From the IMG/VR virus record IMGVR_UViG_2681813004_000010: 18,165 nucleotides of DNA. One strand, given 5' to 3'. The position numbers and the translations under genes were made by a program. Below the pieces are notes generated by a model. It was not told the DNA's origin. It did not search any database and saw nothing but the letters and a program-made list of their open reading frames with translations. The DNA comes from a virus (Duplodnaviria > Heunggongvirae > Uroviricota > Caudoviricetes). Below, in pieces: positions 2,949-16,415 of this stretch (positions within the stretch are counted from its first letter, which is position 1; the number at the start of each line of letters is the position of its first letter).

Positions 2949-2968
<20 letters not shown>

Positions 2969-4268
2969 TCTCCCGCATATTGCCAGTATGGCCTTTAATG
3001 AGCCGCTGATGCTTGAACCCGCCTATGCGCGGGTTTTCTTTTGTGCGCTTGCAGGCCAGCTTGGGATCAGCCGCCTGACGGATGCAGTATCCGGCGACAG
3101 CCTGACTGCCGGAGAGGCACCCGCGGCGCTGGCGTTATCCGGTGATGATGACGGACCACGACAGGCCCGGAGTTATCAGGTCATGAACGGCATCGCCGTG
3201 CTGCCGGTGTCCGGTACGCTGGTCAGCCGGACGCGGGCGCTGCAGCCGTATTCGGGGATGACCGGTTACAACGGCATTATCGCCCGTCTGCAACAGGCTG
3301 CCAGCGACCCGATGGTGGACGGCATTCTGCTCGATATGGACACACCGGGCGGAATGGTGGCGGGAGCATTTGACTGTGCTGACATCATCGCCCGTGTGCG
3401 TGACATAAAACCGGTATGGGCGCTGGCCAACGACATGAACTGCAGTGCAGGTCAGCTGCTTGCCAGCGCCGCCTCCCGGCGTCTGGTCACGCAGACCGCC
3501 CGGACAGGCTCCATCGGCGTCATGATGGCTCACAGTAATTACGGTGCTGCCCTGGAGAAACAGGGCGTGGAAATCACGCTGATTTACAGCGGCAGCCATA
3601 AGGTGGATGGCAACCCCTACAGCCATCTACCGGGTGATGTCCGGGAAACACTGCAGTCCCGGATGGATGCAACCCGCCGGATGTTTGCGCAGAAGGTGTC
3701 GGCATATACCGGCCTGTCCGTGCAGGCTGTGCTGGATACCGAGGCTGCAGTGTACAGCGGTCAGGAGGCCATTGATGCCGGACTGGCTGATGAACTTGTC
3801 AACAGCACCGATGCGATCACCGTTATGCGTGATGCACTGGATGCACGTAAATCCCGTCTCTCAGGAGGGCGAATGACCAAAGAGACTCAATCAACAACTG
3901 TTTCAGCCACTGCTTCGCAGGCTGACGTTACTGGCGTGGTGCCAGCGATGGAGGGCGAAAACGCCAGCGCGGCGCAGCCGGACGTGAACGCGCAGATCAC
4001 CGCTGCGGTTGCGGCAGAAAACAGCCGCATTATGGGGATCCTCAACTGTGAGGAGGCTCACGGACGCGAAGAACAGGCCCGCGTGCTGGCAGAAACCCCC
4101 GGTATGACCGTGGAAACGGCCCGCCGCATTCTGGCCGCAGCACCACAGAGTGCACAGGCGCGCAGTGATACTGCGCTGGATCGTCTGATGCAGGGGGCAC
4201 CGGCACCGCTGGCTGCAGGTAACCCGGCATCTGATGCCGTTAACGATTTGCTGAACACACCAGTGTAA
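2949..4268 (+). CDS. C: prohead protease / minor capsid protein gpC (S49 peptidase family), GTG start
   Basis: Translation from the GTG at 2949 reads (M)TAELRNLPHIASMAFNEPLMLEPAYARVFF…, matching lambda gpC (439 aa). The six-frame track's upstream start at 2814 is an extension running through the B 3' end. Confidence 0.85.
3663..4268 (+). CDS. Nu3: scaffolding protein Nu3, in-frame nested within the 3' part of C
   Basis: In-frame ATG at 3663 (MDATRRMFAQKVSAYTG…), 714 nt downstream of the C start, the same offset as lambda Nu3; shares the C stop. Confidence 0.6.
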   Translation: MDATRRMFAQKVSAYTGLSVQAVLDTEAAVYSGQEAIDAGLADELVNSTDAITVMRDALDARKSRLSGGRMTKETQSTTVSATASQADVTGVVPAMEGENASAAQPDVNAQITAAVAAENSRIMGILNCEEAHGREEQARVLAETPGMTVETARRILAAAPQSAQARSDTALDRLMQGAPAPLAAGNPASDAVNDLLNTPV

Positions 4269-4665: not shown

Positions 4666-4941
4666 ATGTCGATGTACACAACCGCCCAGCTGCTGGCGGC
4701 AAATGAGCAGAAATTTAAGTTTGATCCGCTGTTTCTGCGTCTCTTTTTCCGTGAGAGCTATCCCTTCACCACGGAGAAAGTCTATCTCTCACAAATTCCG
4801 GGACTGGTAAACATGGCGCTGTACGTTTCGCCGATTGTTTCCGGTGAGGTTATCCGTTCCCGTGGCGGCTCCACCTCTGAATTTACGCCGGGATATGTCA
4901 AGCCGAAGCACTTAGCATGGCTTTCTGAGGCTTTCGTGTAG
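4666..4941 (+). pseudogene. E: major capsid protein gpE, 5' fragment (codons 1 to ~82, then 9 unrelated codons and a stop)
   Basis: MSMYTTAQLLAANEQKFKFDPLFLRLFFRESYPFTTEKVYLSQIPGLVNMALYVSPIVSGEVIRSRGGSTSEFTPGYVKPKH matches the lambda gpE N-terminus. After ~4911 the sequence becomes …LAWLSEAFV-stop and lambda collinearity ends. Intact gpE is 341 aa. Confidence 0.85.
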
Positions 4942-5073: not shown

Positions 5074-6309
5074 ATGGCTGGTGAGAACAAACTGAGCGAC
5101 AAAGCACTTAAAGGATATCTGGGGAAACCCAGAGAAAAGCAGATCACCATTGCTGATGGAAAGGGGCTTTCTATTCGTGTGAGTACCAAGGGGGCTGTGA
5201 GCTTTGTTTTCTTCTACAGGTTAGCAGGTGGCCGGGCTGCTCCGGTCTGGCTAACGTTGGGTAAATATCCTGATATGTCACTCAAACAGGCAAGGGAAAA
5301 GCGCGACGAGTGCCGTGGTTGGTTGGCTGACAAACGTGATCCGCGTATCCAGATTAAGATTCAGGCTGAAGAACGCTTAAAGCCGGTCACAGTGGAGGAT
5401 GCACTAAATTACTGGTATGAAAATTACTGTAAGGTGCGTCGTAAAACTCATGCTGTAACGCTTGGCAGATTTCGAAAGCATATCTTTCCCTATATCGGTC
5501 ATTTGCCCGTAAATGACACTCACCTATATGAATGGCTGGACTGTTTTGACCGAATTAAACGTAATGCACCAGTTATGGCGGCGTATGTTTTTTCTGACAC
5601 TAAATTAGCTCTTCGTTTTTGTCGGGTACGCCAGTACGCGACGTGTGATGCTTTAAAGGATTTGCGCATGAGTGATGTGGGGCAGATTGCAGGTAAGCGG
5701 GATCGGGTTCTGGATGAAGCCGAACTGGGCCAGCTCTGGAAGGCAATTTTTGTCGAGCCTGATTTAAAACTAATGTCTGAATACACGCGAAAAATGTTTG
5801 TGCTTTGTACAGTATTTGGATGTCGAATGAGTGAAGCCCGATTATCAGAATGGAGCGAATGGGATCTCGAAAGTTGGGTTTGGACTGTACCAAAAGAACA
5901 CTCAAAAACCGGTGTTGAAATCGTCAGACCAGTACCTGAAATTCTACGACAGTGGGTAACGGATGTTCACGAAGAGACAAAACATACTGGTTATGTGCTG
6001 GGAAGTCTGCGAATTAGAGAAAGCGTAAGCAAGATTGGGGGGAAAATCGGTAAACGTTTGGGCCATGAAAAACAATGGTCACTACACGACCTTAGAAGAA
6101 CGCTATCTACTCATCTAAGTGATCTCGGTGTTGAATTTTATGTAGTAGAACAACTGTTAGGCCATGCGCTACCTGGCGTGGCAGGTGTTTACAACCGGAG
6201 TAAGTTTATGGCTAAAAAACTGGATGCTCTGGAACTCTGGACTACATATCTCAATAGCATCGCAGGTGCTGATTCAAAAGTGACAATCCTCAAACAAAAG
6301 GCTGGTTAA
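5074..6309 (+). CDS. int: tyrosine site-specific integrase, P4-type
   Basis: N-terminus (GKGLSIRVSTKGAVSFVFFYRLAGG…LTLGKYPDMSLKQAREKRDE) looks like the arm-binding domain of P4-like integrases. C-terminal catalytic region has …WSLHDLRRTLSTHL… and …LLGHALPGVAGVYNR (H-x-x-R and catalytic Tyr). The track start at 4942 is an extension; the ATG at 5074 is taken as the start by homology. Confidence 0.9.
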   Translation: MAGENKLSDKALKGYLGKPREKQITIADGKGLSIRVSTKGAVSFVFFYRLAGGRAAPVWLTLGKYPDMSLKQAREKRDECRGWLADKRDPRIQIKIQAEERLKPVTVEDALNYWYENYCKVRRKTHAVTLGRFRKHIFPYIGHLPVNDTHLYEWLDCFDRIKRNAPVMAAYVFSDTKLALRFCRVRQYATCDALKDLRMSDVGQIAGKRDRVLDEAELGQLWKAIFVEPDLKLMSEYTRKMFVLCTVFGCRMSEARLSEWSEWDLESWVWTVPKEHSKTGVEIVRPVPEILRQWVTDVHEETKHTGYVLGSLRIRESVSKIGGKIGKRLGHEKQWSLHDLRRTLSTHLSDLGVEFYVVEQLLGHALPGVAGVYNRSKFMAKKLDALELWTTYLNSIAGADSKVTILKQKAG

Positions 6310-6310
6310 C

Positions 6311-6541
6311 ATGAAAAAAATGGCAATTGTTGATAAAAAGGGTCTGGAGTACATTCCTAACATCGATCGTATGATCCGTGAGAAAGAATGTCGGGAGCTA
6401 ACCACTCTTGCGAACAGCACACGCTGGAAGCTGGAGAAGGAAGGAAAATTTCCTAAGCGGATCAAGATTGGTTCCACTGCTGTTGCATATCGTCTTTCAG
6501 AAGTGCAGGCATGGATTCGAGGTGAGTGGATTGAGAAATAA
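6311..6541 (+). CDS. alpA: AlpA-family HTH regulator / excisionase-like protein
   Basis: 76 aa, …ECRELTTLANSTRWKLEKEGKFPKRIKIGSTAVAYRLSEVQAWI…, the typical AlpA (prophage CP4-57 regulator) pattern. Lies immediately downstream of int, overlapping its stop. Confidence 0.8.
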   Translation: MKKMAIVDKKGLEYIPNIDRMIREKECRELTTLANSTRWKLEKEGKFPKRIKIGSTAVAYRLSEVQAWIRGEWIEK

Positions 6542-6555
6542 TATTTGGAGAATCT

Positions 6556-7473
6556 ATGAGTAGAATGATTAATACCTTGTGCCCTTATAGCCTTATCCCA
6601 TTAAATCAAATAGAACATAATGGAGAACATGTTTTATTAGCTGGATTAGGAGCTCCGGAAAGTTTTACTGTGAATGTTTCAAAAGAAGAAAATACACGAA
6701 TTAACGATTTGTTGGATGAACCATTCTTAGGAATGGAAATAATAAAATTACTCTCGTCTATTTCGGGTCTTCAATCAAGGAGTGGTGAAGTGAAGCCATT
6801 TTTTACTGGAATTACTGAGGGTGGAGATGCGGTGCATGTTAGGATGTCTCCTGGCGAAGTGACATTGAAAGTTAAAAGTCCAGTAGTGAAGGATAAAAAT
6901 AATAATATTGTTGCAGTAACTGGTTACGAAAAGGAGGTACAAGAAACTTTGTTATCAATCACAAAAAAATATGAAGCCAAGGGGTTTTCTGTAATTACTT
7001 CCGCTCCTATAAATCGAGAGGCTGAGATCAAGCTTAACTTCAATTTGGATATTGAATTATTAAATTATCAATATTTAAAGATGGCCTATCTTACAATGGT
7101 CTACGTATTTGGTGATCGCGGGATTAAGTGTCCGGCTGCGAATGAAATTAGAAAAATAATTCTGAATAAATCACCCCTGCCTTCAACTTTAAAAGGTGTT
7201 CGTTCTCTATCATGGGATGTCAATACTTTACCATTACTGCCAAATGTTGATACCCACAAACACATTGTTGCAAGTTTTAATATTCATGGGGAAGTAGTAT
7301 GTGCAGTGTCACTTTTTGGTGTATTTAATAAAGTATTTCTCATTGAAAATGAATTGGTGGATAAGGATAATGTTTTTGGTGAGATATATGAAGTCGACTA
7401 TAAAACAAGAAAAATCAATAGAACGGATATTGTTCAGCGCATTAATGAGGTTACAAAAAACGTACAGTTTTAA
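6556..7473 (+). CDS. hypothetical protein, AT-rich cargo gene (305 aa), function unknown
   Basis: Long ORF with a good SD (GGAGAA 5 nt upstream) and markedly lower GC than its neighbours. No family recognised by eye; N-terminus has C-x-Y … EH-x-GEH … GLG, faintly HNH-like, but I cannot confirm it. Followed by a hairpin/T-run. Confidence 0.6.
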   Translation: MSRMINTLCPYSLIPLNQIEHNGEHVLLAGLGAPESFTVNVSKEENTRINDLLDEPFLGMEIIKLLSSISGLQSRSGEVKPFFTGITEGGDAVHVRMSPGEVTLKVKSPVVKDKNNNIVAVTGYEKEVQETLLSITKKYEAKGFSVITSAPINREAEIKLNFNLDIELLNYQYLKMAYLTMVYVFGDRGIKCPAANEIRKIILNKSPLPSTLKGVRSLSWDVNTLPLLPNVDTHKHIVASFNIHGEVVCAVSLFGVFNKVFLIENELVDKDNVFGEIYEVDYKTRKINRTDIVQRINEVTKNVQF

Positions 7474-7490
7474 ATGTTAACTTAAAATCA

Positions 7491-7531
7491 ACTGATTTGA
7501 GAGTTTACTCAAATCAGTAACGATATTTTTT
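7491..7531 (+). terminator. stem-loop (ACTGATTTGAG / CTCAAATCAGT, 6-nt loop) followed by T6 run
   Basis: Perfect 11-bp inverted repeat at 7491-7501 and 7508-7518, 18 nt after the cargo stop; T-run at 7526-7531, slightly displaced from the stem, so not a textbook intrinsic terminator. Confidence 0.45.
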
Positions 7532-7635: not shown

Positions 7636-7815
7636 CTATTCCTGTTCTTTGGCCTTGCGGCGCTGGCGGTACTCAACTTCTCGTTTTAATGCTGCAGTGA
7701 CAAATTGTCCTGTACTTTCGCCAGGCATTTTTACTGCTTCAACATTGTCCATAACCTCATGCGGAACCCTTGCCGCAACGGTTTGTGATTTTGCGTTTAC
7801 TGCTTTTGTCGCCAT
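7636..7815 (-). CDS. small ribbon-helix-helix (CopG/Arc-like) regulator, putative island repressor
   Basis: Minus-strand ORF …MATKAVNAKSQTVAARVPHEVMDNVEAVKMPGESTGQFVTAALKREVEYRQRRKAKEQE has a beta-strand / helix / helix pattern typical of RHH proteins. Start chosen at the ATG with a GAGGG SD about 9 nt upstream; the track start at 7824 is three codons longer. Divergent from the replication operon. The overlapping plus-strand ORF 7649-7903 was rejected. Confidence 0.5.
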   Translation of the reverse strand: MATKAVNAKSQTVAARVPHEVMDNVEAVKMPGESTGQFVTAALKREVEYRQRRKAKEQE

Positions 7816-7866
7816 GTGGTGCATCCCTCAAAAAAAAACAAATGCAGTATGCAGGAAAAAAAATAA

Positions 7867-7918
7867 GTGTTCAACACTTGAAGTGTTCAACACCTTTGGT
7901 TAAATTGGTGTTCAACAC
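7867..7918. promoter_or_regulatory. three operator-like repeats GTGTTCAACAC in the divergent control region
   Basis: Exact 11-mers at 7867-7877, 7883-7893 and 7908-7918; the 11-mer is a near-palindrome (GTGTT-C-AACAC). Located between the minus-strand RHH gene and the plus-strand operon starting at 8016. Confidence 0.5.
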
Positions 7919-8015
7919 CTTGTTGATGCAATGTGCTTAAACGACGAAACCCGGCTGTGCGCTCACACTAACCGGGCTTCTAACCACCAACGATAGCAAC
8001 AGTATCGAGGTAGCT

Positions 8016-8219
8016 ATGAGAAATCATACCACACACCCGCAAGGGCGGGACCCGCACAACCTGAATAAATACATCTGGCGTTTTATCGCCCTGAGTACGG
8101 CACAACCGCGCGTGATTACCATCGAGGCCACCAGCGAACAGGAAGCCCGCCAGCAATCCCCAACTGGCTGCGTGATGATATTCGCCGCCCGTATTCGTCA
8201 GGAGGTGTGCCATGAATGA
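8016..8219 (+). CDS. hypothetical small protein (67 aa)
   Basis: ORF with GAGGT SD 6 nt upstream; first gene of a translationally coupled operon leading to the primase. No family assigned. Confidence 0.45.
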   Translation: MRNHTTHPQGRDPHNLNKYIWRFIALSTAQPRVITIEATSEQEARQQSPTGCVMIFAARIRQEVCHE

Positions 8220-8439: not shown

Positions 8440-8727
8440 ATGAAAAATAAATTTTCTGGCTTTATTGCCAGCGGTCAAACTCATTCAAAAATCAGCCTTG
8501 GGGATATTTTCAAAGACAGCTATGGCTATCGGGTAAAGATTATTTCGGTTGATGATCGTCGTGTCTCTTATTTGCGTGATGGTTATGATTTTGAATGTGT
8601 TATGCCGCGTCAGCAGTTCGAAAGAGATTTCATTCTGGTAAAAAATTGCAAGACAGATAATCAGAGGCGTGCCGCAGGCTATATCCGTAAAATTCGGGCA
8701 ATGTTAGTTGCCGGAGGTAACAAATGA
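8440..8727 (+). CDS. hypothetical small protein (95 aa)
   Basis: GGAGAA SD 6 nt upstream; stop overlaps the primase start (ATGA). Confidence 0.5.
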   Translation: MKNKFSGFIASGQTHSKISLGDIFKDSYGYRVKIISVDDRRVSYLRDGYDFECVMPRQQFERDFILVKNCKTDNQRRAAGYIRKIRAMLVAGGNK

Positions 8728-10544
8728 AACGTGCTCCGAACTTAAAATACCAACCGCGCGACAAAATGACGGAAGTCATCATTTTTGCTGGCAGTGATGC
8801 CTGGAGCCATGCAAAAGAATGGAATGAATGGGCAGGTAAGCATATTGCAGCAGATGATACACCACCAGTCATTCTGGGTACGGAACAACTGGAAAACCTG
8901 GATGATATGCAAATTATCGATGAAGGCCGTCATTATGTGCGTGTTTATCGTGCCGGAAAGATTGCAGAGAAAAGTCTGACGAAGGTTGCGACATTACTTG
9001 CTATTGCAGGCGTAAAGGAAGCACGTTGTTACCGTAGCTTTGTTGATCGAGAGCCTGAAGACTGGACTCCGCGCCTTGTCGGCCTAAAAGCTGAAGCGGA
9101 GCATGGGGAAAGTCTGGTGATTGAACTGCCAGTGAAGAAGGCTGAGCGCAAAAATGACGAGCGTGCTTCATCTTTGGCGTTGAATCAGATGGGGGCCAGC
9201 CAGCGCGGTGAAGTTCTCCTTGCACATTACGGCGGCGAACTGGCAATCAATGCCGACTCTGACACCGTTCATCATTACAACGGCGTTGTATGGGAGCCGG
9301 TTCAGGATAAAGAGTTACAGCGTGCTATGGCGCAGATTTTCATTGATGCGGAGATCAGCTATTCGCAGAACGCTATTAAATCGGCGGTAGATACCATGAA
9401 GTTAAGTTTGCCTGTAATGGGGAATACAGCCCGTAACCTGATTGGATTCAGTAACGGGGTATTTGATACCAGAACTGGTAATTTTCGGGAGCATAACAAA
9501 AACGACTGGTTGTTAATTGCCAGTGAATTACCTTTCAGCCCACCAGCAGAGGGGGAAACGCTGGCAACACATGCGCCGAATTTCTGGAAGTGGTTGCGCC
9601 GTTCGGTGGCTGAGAATGACCGCAAGGCAGATCGCGTACTGGCGGCATTATTCATGGTGCTGGCGAACCGGTACGACTGGCAGTTATTCATTGAGGTAAC
9701 AGGGCCGGGGGGAAGTGGTAAAAGTGTGATGGCGGAGATTTGCACCATGCTGGCGGGTAAGGCTAATACAGTATCAGCAAGCATGAAGGCGCTGGAAGAT
9801 GCAAGGGAACGTGCGTTAGTGGTTGGCTTTTCGCTGATTATCATGCCGGATATGACCCGCTACGCTGGTGATGGGGCAGGGATTAAGGCCATTACAGGCG
9901 GTGACAAGGTGGCAATTGACCCGAAACACAAAGCCCCCTATTCAACGCGTATTCCGGCAGTAGTACTGGCGGTTAACAATAACGCCATGTCATTCAGTGA
10001 CCGCAGCGGGGGGATCTCACGTCGTCGGGTGATATTCAATTTTTCGGAAGTTGTACCGGAGAACGAACGCGATTCGATGCTGGCGGAAAAAATAGAAGGT
10101 GAGCTGGCGGTAGTGATTCGTCATCTGCTTACACGGTTTGCTGATCAGGACGAAGCCAGACGCCTGTTATATGAGCAGCAGAAATCTGAAGAAGCACTGG
10201 CGATAAAGCGAGAGGGGGATTCGCTGGTGGACTTCTGCGGCTATCTCATGGCATCGGTAATGTGTGATGGCCTATTAGTGGGTAATGCTGAAATTGTGCC
10301 ATTCAGCCCACGCAGGTATCTCTATCATGCCTATCTGGCTTATATGAGGGCACATGGGTTTGGTAAACCTGTAACACTGACGCGCTTCGGTAAAGATATG
10401 CCGGGGGCAATGGCGGAATATGGCAGGGAGTATATGAAACGGAAAACGAAGCACGGTTTGCGTTCAAACGTGACACTGACGGAGGAATCAGAGGACTGGA
10501 TGCCATCATGTGTATCGGTCACTAATGACGATAGCAAAAATTAA
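8724..10544 (+). CDS. replication primase/helicase, P4-family (D5-like SF3 NTPase domain)
   Basis: 606 aa. Walker A FIEVTGPGGSGKSV, hydrophobic Walker B …LVVGFSLIIMPDM…, then …GIKAITGGDKVAIDPKHKAPYS…, typical of phage/plasmid P4-family primase C-terminal domains. GGAGGT SD; iteron origin immediately downstream. Confidence 0.8.
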   Translation: MKRAPNLKYQPRDKMTEVIIFAGSDAWSHAKEWNEWAGKHIAADDTPPVILGTEQLENLDDMQIIDEGRHYVRVYRAGKIAEKSLTKVATLLAIAGVKEARCYRSFVDREPEDWTPRLVGLKAEAEHGESLVIELPVKKAERKNDERASSLALNQMGASQRGEVLLAHYGGELAINADSDTVHHYNGVVWEPVQDKELQRAMAQIFIDAEISYSQNAIKSAVDTMKLSLPVMGNTARNLIGFSNGVFDTRTGNFREHNKNDWLLIASELPFSPPAEGETLATHAPNFWKWLRRSVAENDRKADRVLAALFMVLANRYDWQLFIEVTGPGGSGKSVMAEICTMLAGKANTVSASMKALEDARERALVVGFSLIIMPDMTRYAGDGAGIKAITGGDKVAIDPKHKAPYSTRIPAVVLAVNNNAMSFSDRSGGISRRRVIFNFSEVVPENERDSMLAEKIEGELAVVIRHLLTRFADQDEARRLLYEQQKSEEALAIKREGDSLVDFCGYLMASVMCDGLLVGNAEIVPFSPRRYLYHAYLAYMRAHGFGKPVTLTRFGKDMPGAMAEYGREYMKRKTKHGLRSNVTLTEESEDWMPSCVSVTNDDSKN

Positions 10545-13225: not shown

Positions 13226-13609
13226 ATGCAGAATGATTACAATGACCTTAAGCCAATTGCCGAAATGATGTACCCGAATCCAGCTGTAGAGGAATTAAAA
13301 GCTATCGCTGACAAAATGTGTTTAAGCGAGCGCCTTGTTGATATGAATCAGGTGATGGAAATTACAACCCTGAGTCGGCGTACACTGCTAAACCTTGAGG
13401 CTAGTGGAGAGTTCCCGGAGCGTGTGCAGGTTACGGAAGGGCGTAAGGCCTGGTATTTAAGTGAAGTGATCGACTGGATAAATAATATTCCTCGCGCTTC
13501 TGAATATTGCCGCGTACCTGTCCCAAAAAAGCCAGATGCGGCGCTATGCCTCAAGATTGAGCGTGTACGCCGCAATGCACGGGATGGTCGCTATAAGCTG
13601 ATTGGTTGA
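13226..13609 (+). CDS. AlpA-like HTH protein with N-terminal extension (127 aa)
   Basis: …MNQVMEITTLSRRTLLNLEASGEFPERVQVTEGRKAWYLSEVIDWI… fits the AlpA-family HTH. Strong SD (AAGGGGGA). Ends about 10-30 bp before the cos-flanking homology begins. Confidence 0.6.
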   Translation: MQNDYNDLKPIAEMMYPNPAVEELKAIADKMCLSERLVDMNQVMEITTLSRRTLLNLEASGEFPERVQVTEGRKAWYLSEVIDWINNIPRASEYCRVPVPKKPDAALCLKIERVRRNARDGRYKLIG

Positions 13610-14400: not shown

Positions 14401-16114
14401 CAGGCTGCGGCATTTTGTCCGCGCCGGGCTTCGCTCACTGTTCAGGCCGGAGCCACAGACTGCCGTTGAATGGGCGGATGCTAATTACTATCTCCCGAAA
14501 GAATCCGCATACCAGGAAGGGTGCTGGGAAACACTGCCCTTTCAGCGGGCCATCATGAATGCGATGGGCAGCGACTACATCCGTGAGGTGAATGTGGTGA
14601 AGTCTGCCCGTGTCGGTTATTCCAAAATGCTGCTGGGTGTTTATGCCTACTTCATAGAGCATAAGCAACGCAACACACTTATCTGGTTGCCGACGGATGG
14701 TGATGCCGAGAACTTCATGAAAACTCACGTTGAGCCAACCATCCGTGATATTCCGTCGCTGCTGGCGCTGGCTCCGTGGTATGGCAAAAAGCACCGGGAT
14801 AACACGCTCACTATGAAGCGTTTCACCAATGGTCGTGGCTTCTGGTGCCTGGGCGGTAAAGCGGCAAAAAACTACCGTGAAAAGTCGGTGGATGTGGCGG
14901 GTTATGATGAACTTGCTGCCTTTGATGAGGATATTGAACAGGAAGGCTCTCCGACGTTCCTGGGCGATAAGCGTATTGAAGGCTCGGTCTGGCCAAAGTC
15001 CATCCGTGGCTCCACGCCCAAAGTGAGAGGCACCTGTCAGATTGAGCGTGCAGCCAGTGAATCCCCGCATTTTATGCGTTTTCATGTTGCCTGCCCGCAC
15101 TGCGGGGAGGAGCAGTACCTTAAATTTGGCGATAAAGAGACGCCGTTTGGCCTCAAATGGACGCCGGATGACCCCTCCAGCGTGTTTTATCTCTGTGAGC
15201 ATAATGCCTGCGTCATCCGTCAGCAGGAGCTGGACTTTACTGATGCCCGTTATATCTGCGAAAAGACCGGGATCTGGACCCGTGATGGCATTCTCTGGTT
15301 TTCGTCATCCGGTGAAGAGATTGAACCGCCTGACAGTGTGACCTTTCACATCTGGACGGCGTACAGCCCGTTCACCACCTGGGTGCAGATTGTCAAAGAC
15401 TGGATGAAGACGAAAGGGGATACGGGAAAACGTAAAACCTTCGTGAACACCACGCTCGGTGAGACGTGGGAAGCGAAAATCGGCGAACGTCCGGATGCTG
15501 AAGTGATGGCAGAGCGGAAAGAGTATTATTCAGCGCCCGTTCCTGATCGTGTGGCTTACCTGACCGCCGGTATCGACTCCCAGCTGGACCGCTACGAAAT
15601 GCGCGTATGGGGATGGGGGCCGGGTGAGGAAAGCTGGCTGATTGACCGGCAGATTATTATGGGCCGCCACGACGATGAACAGACGCTGCTGCGTGTGGAT
15701 GAGGCCATCAATAAAACCTATACCCGCCGGAATGGTGCAGAAATGTCGGTATCCCGTATCTGCTGGGATACTGGCGGGATTGACCCGACCATTGTGTATG
15801 AACGCTCGAAAAAACATGGGCTGTTCCGGGTGATCCCCATTAAAGGGGCATCCGTCTACGGAAAGCCGGTGGCCAGCATGCCACGTAAGCGAAACAAAAA
15901 CGGGGTTTACCTTACCGAAATCGGTACGGATACCGCGAAAGAGCAGATTTATAACCGCTTCACACTGACGCCGGAAGGGGATGAACCGCTTCCCGGTGCC
16001 GTTCACTTCCCGAATAACCCGGATATTTTTGATCTGACCGAAGCGCAGCAGCTGACGGCTGAAGAGCAGGTCGAAAAATGGGTGGATGGCAGGAAAAAAA
16101 GCGGTGTCTTATAA
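14375..16114 (+). pseudogene. A: terminase large subunit gpA, copy 2, truncated after codon ~575 (fused to E 3' sequence, ends …GRKK-SGVL-stop)
   Basis: MNISNSQVNRLRHFVRAGLRSLF… is collinear with lambda gpA through …EQVEKWVDGRKK, then reads 4 codons into E-derived sequence and stops. Copy 1 shows the normal continuation (…ILWDSKKRRNEALDCF…GEDE), so ~66 C-terminal codons are missing here. Confidence 0.85.
15134..16100 (+). repeat. direct repeat copy 2 (A gene segment), partner at 1-967
   Basis: See copy 1. The repeat ends at the A7 run (16094-16100), where copy 2 diverges into E sequence. Confidence 0.95.
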
Positions 16115-16415
16115 GGGAATGTATGGCGATGTGGCCATCGTCGTGTATTCCGGACAGTACGTGGAAAACGGCGTCAAAAAGAACTTCCTGCCGGACAACA
16201 CGATGGTGCTGGGGAACACTCAGGCACGCGGTCTGCGTACCTATGGCTGTATTCAGGATGCGGACGCACAGCGCGAAGGCATTAACGCCTCTGCCCGTTA
16301 CCCGAAAAACTGGGTGACCACCGGCGATCCGGCGCGTGAGTTCACCATGATTCAGTCAGCACCGCTGATGCTGCTGGCTGATCCTGATGAGTTCGTGTCC
16401 GTTCAACTGGCGTAA
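16098..16415 (+). pseudogene. E: major capsid protein gpE, 3' fragment (about codons 237-341)
   Basis: KAVSYKGMYGDVAIVVYSGQYVENGVKKNFLPDNTMVLGNTQARGLRTYGCIQDADAQREGINASARYPKNWVTTGDPAREFTMIQSAPLMLLADPDEFVSVQLA matches the lambda gpE C-terminus. It is joined in a different frame to A codon ~575 and has no own start except a fortuitous ATG at 16086. Confidence 0.85.

Follow-up and report, generated by a model that had tools for sequence, protein, structure and literature searches.

The control region at the head of the rightward operon of the island described here is likely to be a two-layer negative control unit, placed in front of the replication genes of a phage satellite of the EcCICFT073 type. 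The best reading is that the replication operon is held by a repressor that also limits its own synthesis and comes in swappable immunity types, because the predicted sites track a small ribbon-helix-helix (RHH) gene and overlap predicted, conserved back-to-back promoters. A predicted antisense RNA, lying across the start of the first operon gene, would provide the second layer.

A Satellite Inside a Prophage Capsid Gene

The window (the whole stretch of DNA analysed, 18,165 bp) is 100% identical to Escherichia coli strain 980-2. In the matching stretch, the RefSeq annotation gives late genes of a lambdoid prophage (terminase, portal, S49 peptidase and decoration protein), with the major capsid gene present as 5´ and 3´ pseudogene halves on the plus strand (window 4667–4912 and ~15474–16262; 7267–7512 and 18074–18862 in locus L001). 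An island of ~10.5 kb lies between these halves, in the same orientation as the prophage late operon.

The island starts with the integrase gene (5075–6309), followed by the alpA gene (6311–6541) and a gene for a 305-aa hypothetical protein (6556–7473). The latter had no match in Pfam, NCBIfam or PHROGs, and its position is that of the variable 'Bro zone' of PICIs. The minus-strand YlcI/YnfO family gene comes next, and then the icd-like gene (8016–8219; NCBIfam NF033153, 69.6 bits, in agreement with RefSeq), which is the first gene of the rightward operon. Its start at 8016, already given in the initial annotation, is common to the ORF list and RefSeq. A hypothetical gene and a DUF4222 gene lie between the icd-like gene and the D5-type primase gene (8724–10544), downstream of which come, in this order, genes for SSB, a capsid E homologue, a decoration protein, a second AlpA-like HTH protein and a TerS-like protein. 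The second AlpA/excisionase-like HTH protein, encoded at 13226–13609 between the decoration and TerS-like genes (phrog_2790, E 1e-49), is a possible regulator of the late module.

These features are those of Gram-negative PICIs: int, alpA and pri-rep are co-oriented, the element is small, and it carries some phage late genes that make up a partial virion set. The gene order is the same as in the model Gram-negative PICI, EcCICFT073, and the island is an EcCICFT073-type PICI of E. coli inside a lambdoid prophage capsid gene. Furthermore, its insertion within a helper late gene, at the capsid E site, is that of a helper-embedded PICI (HE-PICI), an arrangement described, with the insertion site E:Phage_cap_E, by Mageeney et al. 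(PMC10111431). Capsid-forming PICIs (cf-PICIs) possess their own portal, protease, head–tail connectors and large terminase (bioRxiv 10.1101/2022.09.08.507074). This identity was rejected for the island, which has only capsid, decoration and small-terminase-like genes, with no portal, protease or TerL.

Since the island is co-oriented inside the capsid gene, helper late transcription would enter int, alpA and the control region directly. A terminator-like hairpin at 7491–7518, a perfect inverted repeat of 11 bp whose tails are T-rich on both strands, separates the convergent 305-aa gene on the alpA side from the regulator gene. Judging from its sequence, it is probably a bidirectional terminator that ends both transcription units, and transcription from the alpA side would need to read through it.

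The 59-Residue Regulator and Its Predicted Fold

The initial annotation had proposed a minus-strand regulator of 59–62 aa with an RHH pattern. A 62-aa ORF (7636–7824) is indeed present in the ORF list, and the shorter end of the proposed range is the one that stands. The 62-aa reading was dropped because all of the aligned homologues (33/33) start with MATKAV or MATG and conservation ends at that ATG, which sets the true start at 7815. The regulator gene therefore spans 7636–7815 on the minus strand (stop codon 7636–7638) and encodes 59 aa, which is also the RefSeq call (WP_058100935.1).

The protein belongs to the YlcI/YnfO family (NCBIfam NF041551, 60.8 bits, E 9e-17, above the curated cutoff of 30 bits) and falls into a PHROGs family of unknown function. 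Searches against Pfam Arc (PF03869), RHH_1/RHH_5 and DUF3950 (PF13132) gave no match even at E ≤ 1, and a PDB sequence search returned only noise. An AlphaFold2 single-chain model, built with 33 sequences (pLDDT 80.8), has an extended N-terminus, with the putative DNA-reading strand at residues ~10–17 (SQTVAARV), then helix A (residues 19–28), a turn and helix B (residues 35–58). Among the 33 homologues, G32, E33 and S34 are invariant and T35 nearly so; in the model, these residues form the loop and the beginning of helix B. A conserved G-x-S/T/N turn thus joins helix A and helix B, as is characteristic of the RHH superfamily. An RHH-like fold for the 59-aa protein is suggested by this model, in line with the pattern first noticed in the letters. 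No function for YlcI or YnfO was found in the literature, and a likely function can now be assigned to one branch of this uncharacterised family.

Three Sites over Predicted Back-to-Back Promoters

Three exact copies of GTGTTCAACAC start at 7867, 7883 and 7908, with the spacings of 16 and 25 bp (start to start) reported previously, and copies 2 and 3 are extended to GTGTTCAACACCTT, also as described. The 18,165-bp window holds no further exact copy elsewhere; the chance expectation is 0.02, and three or more were reached in 0/200 shuffles. Each site is a 5+1+5 palindrome (GTGTT-C-AACAC).

The rightward promoter, P_R, is predicted on the plus strand at 7878–7906 (−35 TTGAAG at 7878–7883, a 17-bp spacer and −10 TAAATT at 7901–7906), from where it would drive the icd-like/DUF4222/primase operon. 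Relatives retain CTTGAC and TAnAnT at these positions within diverged flanks. The regulator's own leftward promoter is predicted on the minus strand at 7846–7874, with −35 TTGAAC (complement of 7869–7874), a 17-bp spacer and −10 CATACT (complement of 7846–7851); the corresponding CAGTATG is invariant in nine loci, and other immunity types have a site immediately after TATACT. A consensus promoter scan with a threshold of 9/12 positions lists neither promoter, because each matches 8/12, and their assignment rests on conservation instead. In the nine-way alignment, the three sites, CTTGA[AC], TAnAnT and CAGTATG are conserved, with diverged spacers, leader and sequence past O3.

The three predicted operators are arranged around these elements. 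O1 (7867–7877) is located immediately upstream of the rightward −35, contains the predicted −35 of the regulator's own promoter and is conserved in nine diverged loci. O2 (7883–7893) falls within the 17-bp spacer of the rightward promoter, and its central base is C or T among relatives. O3 (7908–7918) is directly downstream of the rightward −10, over the predicted start at ~7913, and has an equivalent at −102 from the regulator ATG in nearly all relatives. As placed by the predicted promoter elements, O2 in the spacer and O3 over +1 are in repressor positions. The proposal that a repressor and its operators control the replication and capsid operon is supported in its replication part, by this overlap and by the covariation described below; the rightward promoter may control the capsid genes as well.

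The Sites Follow the RHH Gene

The regulator gene and its upstream DNA were gathered from ~30 related islands in at least eight genera, with hosts including E. coli, Salmonella, Klebsiella, Edwardsiella, Pectobacterium, Xenorhabdus and unclassified Enterobacteriaceae. In each sampled island, between two and four 11-bp sites fit the pattern GTGT-NNNN-CAC, and their distances from the regulator ATG are conserved (~−102, ~−77, and ~−32 or −61 to −64). The central 4 bp change along with residues 11–15 of the putative DNA-reading strand, giving seven protein/site types. Proteins reading SQT[VIL]AAR[VI] at residues 10–17 go with the core TGAA (E. coli, Edwardsiella, Pectobacterium and Klebsiella-type), and those with S[KR]KLEARV go with CAGC (Xenorhabdus, Pectobacterium, E. 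coli and Salmonella). SQSVTARI is paired with AAGA in E. coli (L019, L020), SKRFDVRV with CGGA in Salmonella-type islands (L021, L022) and SKKIDVRV with CAGA in a metagenome contig (L031). Finally, SQ[AS]LK[AS]RV occurs with GGCC in EcCICFT073 and Enterobacteriaceae H11S18, and SQALRARV with AGAC in Salmonella (L030).

Once the first types had been derived, the sites of three further proteins were predicted before the loci were fetched, and all three predictions were correct. One protein (P0027) has a C-terminal half as in the window protein, yet a different strand and different sites. Some islands carry a site in inverted orientation, which fits a symmetric dimer. Indirectly, this covariation points to base recognition by an N-terminal strand at palindromic sites, the mode expected of an RHH protein.

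Block recombination can also yield covariation of neighbouring DNA, so that a helper-phage or host factor might bind the repeats, with the adjacent ORF co-inherited through physical linkage alone. The helper prophage does have a distant relative of its own, a 77-aa YlcI/YnfO protein (Pfam DUF3950) encoded beside nohD/cos (L001 701–934, outside the window). However, this protein is just 18% identical to the island regulator, and tblastn against 50,697 phage records retrieved nothing related to the island protein. Moreover, the seven site types pair with seven strand types across genera in which the intergenic sequence is otherwise diverged, and islands of one site type occur in different hosts and attachment sites. 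Binding by an outside factor is, on this evidence, very unlikely.

The comparison of islands that share some genes and differ in others separates the RHH gene from the remaining candidates. L017, another capsid-embedded island (E. coli T-HYM1), has no YlcI-type gene. Its AlpA is identical to that of the window over 73 aligned residues, its primase is identical (WP_000817024.1, also shared by L018) and its icd-like gene is near-identical. At the regulator position it has an unannotated RHH-like ORF (…QFRMRISPELKEQFDKEAQSDGISLANWLKELGRKEL…), with sub-threshold matches to HicB, Arc and RHH_5, and two GTGACCACCT repeats stand at positions equivalent to the window sites. Conversely, regulator type and sites are unchanged in L018, L033 and L035, although one or more of AlpA, the integrase, the att site, the replication protein and the first gene are different there. 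The same holds for islands at tRNA-Pro, roxA/pepT and cspD, which retain this type of regulator and its three sites with a different AlpA, integrase and first gene, and with a replication protein that is either a D5 primase or a RepA helicase. The sites therefore go with the RHH gene rather than with AlpA, the integrase, the primase or the first gene of the operon.

In L017, RefSeq annotates a plus-strand 'hypothetical protein' pseudogene at 3720–3880, where an intact Arc-like RHH ORF is found on the minus strand; the pseudogene is probably a mis-annotation hiding a regulator.

The same comparison bears on AlpA, the one regulator with demonstrated control of these islands (PMC6092414), which might bind the repeats and activate, rather than repress, the rightward promoter, with the small ORF incidental. 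P_R is sub-consensus in the window, as is often the case in activator-dependent promoters. Nevertheless, an AlpA identical over 73 aligned residues is accompanied in L017 by entirely different repeats, the AlpA of L018 is just 43% identical over 37 residues and is accompanied by the same repeats, and islands with other AlpA proteins have the same sites. The sites in the spacer and over +1 are, in addition, in repressor positions, and AlpA is a highly improbable reader of these repeats.

Iteron origins are typically short direct repeats near replication genes, and unexplained repeated motifs near attP have been reported for HE-PICIs (PMC10111431). The repeats could, on these grounds, be replication-origin iterons or integrase/excisionase arm-type sites instead of operators. 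Against this, the identical primase of the window, L017 and L018 goes with different repeats in L017, L033 has a RepA helicase and the same repeats, and the PICI ori has been mapped downstream of pri-rep (PMC6092414). The repeats are also ~3 kb from the island end, and L017 uses the same attachment site with different repeats. This explanation, too, is highly improbable.

The icd-like protein, which carries the PHROG label 'transcriptional repressor', was also rejected as the cognate factor: it is near-identical in L017 despite different sites, and its gene is absent in L021, L022 and L029, which retain the regulator and the sites.

The RHH protein could, lastly, be the antitoxin and autoregulator of a small toxin–antitoxin or cargo operon, acting on its own leftward promoter only, with any effect on the replication operon as a by-product. 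In the window, however, there is no downstream partner gene, and in relatives the downstream genes are unconserved and gave no toxin-family matches. The geometry at the opposite, rightward promoter is also conserved, its −10 always lying between two of the three sites, and the module always heads a replication or early operon. This alternative is unlikely, although less so than those above, and repression of the replication operon by the RHH protein is the reading retained here.

A Predicted Antisense RNA over the icd-like Start

The interval proposed initially for the control region (7636–7990) cuts through an element that it overlooked, a predicted cis-antisense small RNA of ~80 nt on the minus strand (7936–8018), with its 5´ end near 8015/8016. 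The predicted RNA comprises two nested 5´ helices and a 3´ terminator hairpin with a U-run, and it is fully complementary to the P_R leader, the Shine-Dalgarno sequence and the start codon of the target, the icd-like gene (8007–8219 on the plus strand, with GAGG at 8007–8010 and the ATG at 8016). An extended −10 promoter, TGgTATGAT, is predicted for it on the minus strand at 8023–8031, inside icd-like codons 3–6 and seven bases upstream of 8015/8016. A −10-like hexamer (TATGAT, TATAAT, TAGACT or TATGCT) is found at a fixed distance from the start codon in 17 loci. The terminator hairpin (7950–7977, minus strand) is followed by UUUCGUCGUUU, ~75 nt downstream of the RNA start. In relatives, sequence changes in the terminator stem are compensated and the U-run is clearer (e.g., GCGTTGCTGTTTTTA).

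Sixteen diverged copies fold into a common structure of 24 pairs, with compensatory changes in 12 of them. Paired cells amount to 95.5%, compared with 38–49% when the partners are slid, and this value was matched by 0/500 shuffles. When the opposite strand is read, pairing goes down to 80.6%, with 57 G–U cells. The window copy has an MFE of −35.6 kcal/mol (z −5.3) and scores 80.4 bits (E 2e-18) with the covariance model R1, which was built from these copies. Model R1 finds one copy per island, always on the strand of the regulator, including nine loci outside model-building, EcCICFT073 among them. The R1 search found no copy in L021, L022 and L029, where the first gene is not icd-like, indicating that the antisense RNA belongs with the icd-like gene and not with the repressor.

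At Rfam gathering thresholds, no match was obtained in the window. A permissive scan gave a SymR match (RF01809) on the minus strand at 7943–8015, with 30.2 bits (E 0.0018) against a gathering score of 61. C4 (RF01695) and isrK (RF01394), which have been reported in some HE-PICI islands (PMC10111431), had no match in the window even at E ≤ 10.

In one E. coli island (L024), a second control module lies behind the first at 2960–3364. Its parts are a further element resembling the antisense RNA, a cluster of GTGTGTAATGTGTATATACACATAAACACAT palindromes and an Arc-like RHH ORF akin to that of L017, and it could represent either a tandem module or a remnant.

Proposed Mechanism of Repression and Its Relief

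On the basis of the features read in the DNA, the predicted fold, the covariation in both the sites and the RNA structure, and the independence of the sites from other genes, we infer regulator binding and repression as follows. In the first layer, a dimer of the RHH repressor would insert its N-terminal β-ribbon (residues ~10–17) into the major groove of GTGT-NNNN-CAC. Occupation of O2, in the spacer, and O3, at the start site, would block RNA polymerase at the icd-like/DUF4222/primase operon, and O1, which holds the regulator's own −35, would provide autoregulation. Residues 11–15 would set the central 4 bp, with QTVAA specifying GTGTTGAACAC and KKLEA specifying GTGTCAGCCAC, so that immunity types would be interchangeable.

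In the second layer, a constitutive antisense RNA of ~80 nt would pair with the P_R leader and the ribosome-binding site, trapping the transcripts that escape the repressor. Translation of the first gene would be blocked and downstream expression probably reduced via polarity.

The initial annotation put forward the hypothesis that a helper-phage signal would have to act at this region to derepress the island. In published work, Gram-negative PICIs are induced via helper-dependent AlpA expression (PMC6092414; bioRxiv 10.1101/2022.09.08.507074). In EcCICFT073, AlpA is needed for induction and its over-expression is sufficient (PMC6092414). The block would most likely be lifted by transcription entering from upstream, either AlpA-dependent or, in the embedded copy, from the helper late operon. 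If resistant to termination, such transcription could override both layers, partly by collision with the two leftward promoters. With the island inside the helper late operon, the repressor could be bypassed by read-through and need not be targeted. A helper-encoded anti-repressor would be an alternative way of lifting the block.

Comparison with Known Systems

The closest analogue in logic is the immI region of phage P22 and the closest in role is Stl/Rpr of Gram-positive satellites, neither of them homologous to the island module. P22 immI encodes the RHH repressors Mnt and Arc, with the divergent promoters Pant and Pmnt and the sar antisense RNA. Both systems would combine small RHH repressors, operators over back-to-back divergent promoters, one protein that controls both promoters, and a short cis-antisense RNA that covers the ribosome-binding site of one gene of the operon under repression. 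However, no sequence relationship was detected (no Pfam Arc match and no PDB sequence match). The island has three 11-bp palindromes 16–25 bp apart, in contrast to a single 21-bp operator in P22, its operon encodes satellite replication functions instead of an antirepressor and, unlike P22 immI, its protein has at least seven swappable specificities.

Gram-positive PICIs are kept silent by a master repressor, which is inactivated by helper proteins. As with SaPI Stl and Gram-positive PICI Rpr, the island regulator gene is divergent from the satellite replication operon. Stl and Rpr, however, are larger helix-turn-helix proteins inactivated by a helper protein, whereas the island regulator is a non-homologous 59-aa RHH protein, and AlpA activation is required in the Gram-negative PICI lineage (PMC6092414).

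The P1/P7 immI region (C4 RNA, icd, ant) and the CI RNA of P4 resemble the island in having RNA-based immunity in a satellite or plasmid prophage, with an icd-like first gene, a predicted block of translation by a small RNA and probable downstream polarity. C4 and CI arise by processing of the same-strand transcript and have repeated target sites, in contrast to the island RNA, which would come from the opposite strand. SymR (symE/symR), the best Rfam match, is an RNA of ~77 nt that runs from the target start codon over the Shine-Dalgarno sequence and has a similar 3´ hairpin, but the score is far below gathering and the island target gene is unrelated to symE. Finally, YlcI (DLP12) and YnfO (Qin) share with the regulator the family NF041551 and the form of small proteins with an RHH-like pattern; helper YlcI hits DUF3950 and lies beside cos/terminase, whereas the island protein has no DUF3950 match and occupies another position.

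EcCICFT073 and the Distribution of the Module

EcCICFT073 has the same module as the window (L027 7243–7855; E. coli CFT073, NC_004431.1, 1380242–1380854). It consists of a 59-aa YlcI/YnfO gene (C_RS30120), the antisense RNA (68.6 bits) and an icd-like gene, with two GTGTGGCCCAC sites and GTCCCCCAC after the −10. The immunity type of the window occurs in 509 of 5,426 complete E. coli genomes.

The founding PICI paper leaves it unclear what acts as repressor in Gram-negative elements (PMC6092414). In the literature covered, which took in subscription journals in part, the RHH/antisense module is undescribed and no repressor is reported for Gram-negative PICIs or EcCICFT073. It is a tentative proposal, on balance more doubtful than probable, that YlcI/YnfO-type RHH proteins are the missing master repressor of Gram-negative PICIs and the counterpart of Stl/Rpr, with the five-residue code defining immunity groups and with helper induction overriding both the RHH protein and the antisense RNA. 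If so, these proteins would silence the replication operon not only in EcCICFT073 but also in about one tenth or more of E. coli genomes, and the helper override would depend on read-through, either AlpA-driven or from the late operon, or on an anti-repressor. Deletion of the repressor would then make the island self-inducing, or AlpA-independent for replication.

The analysis provides a concrete repressor candidate in the model island, with defined predicted operators and promoters and a residue-to-base code. This bears on satellite quiescence, on the way in which the block yields to AlpA or to late transcription from the helper, and on a possible role of immunity types in interference between co-resident satellites. 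Furthermore, the seven predicted orthogonal pairs of 59-aa repressors and 11-bp operators are possible compact parts for synthetic biology.

Most relatives have a variable, small, co-directional gene of 57–248 aa directly downstream of the regulator (L019, L021, L024, L025, L028–L030, L034 and L035), which the window is without; EcCICFT073 has a 57-aa arginine-rich ORF there. A Pfam search of these variable genes gave only weak SWIM and WYL hints. By analogy with rexAB behind lambda cI, they could be cargo expressed in the quiescent state.
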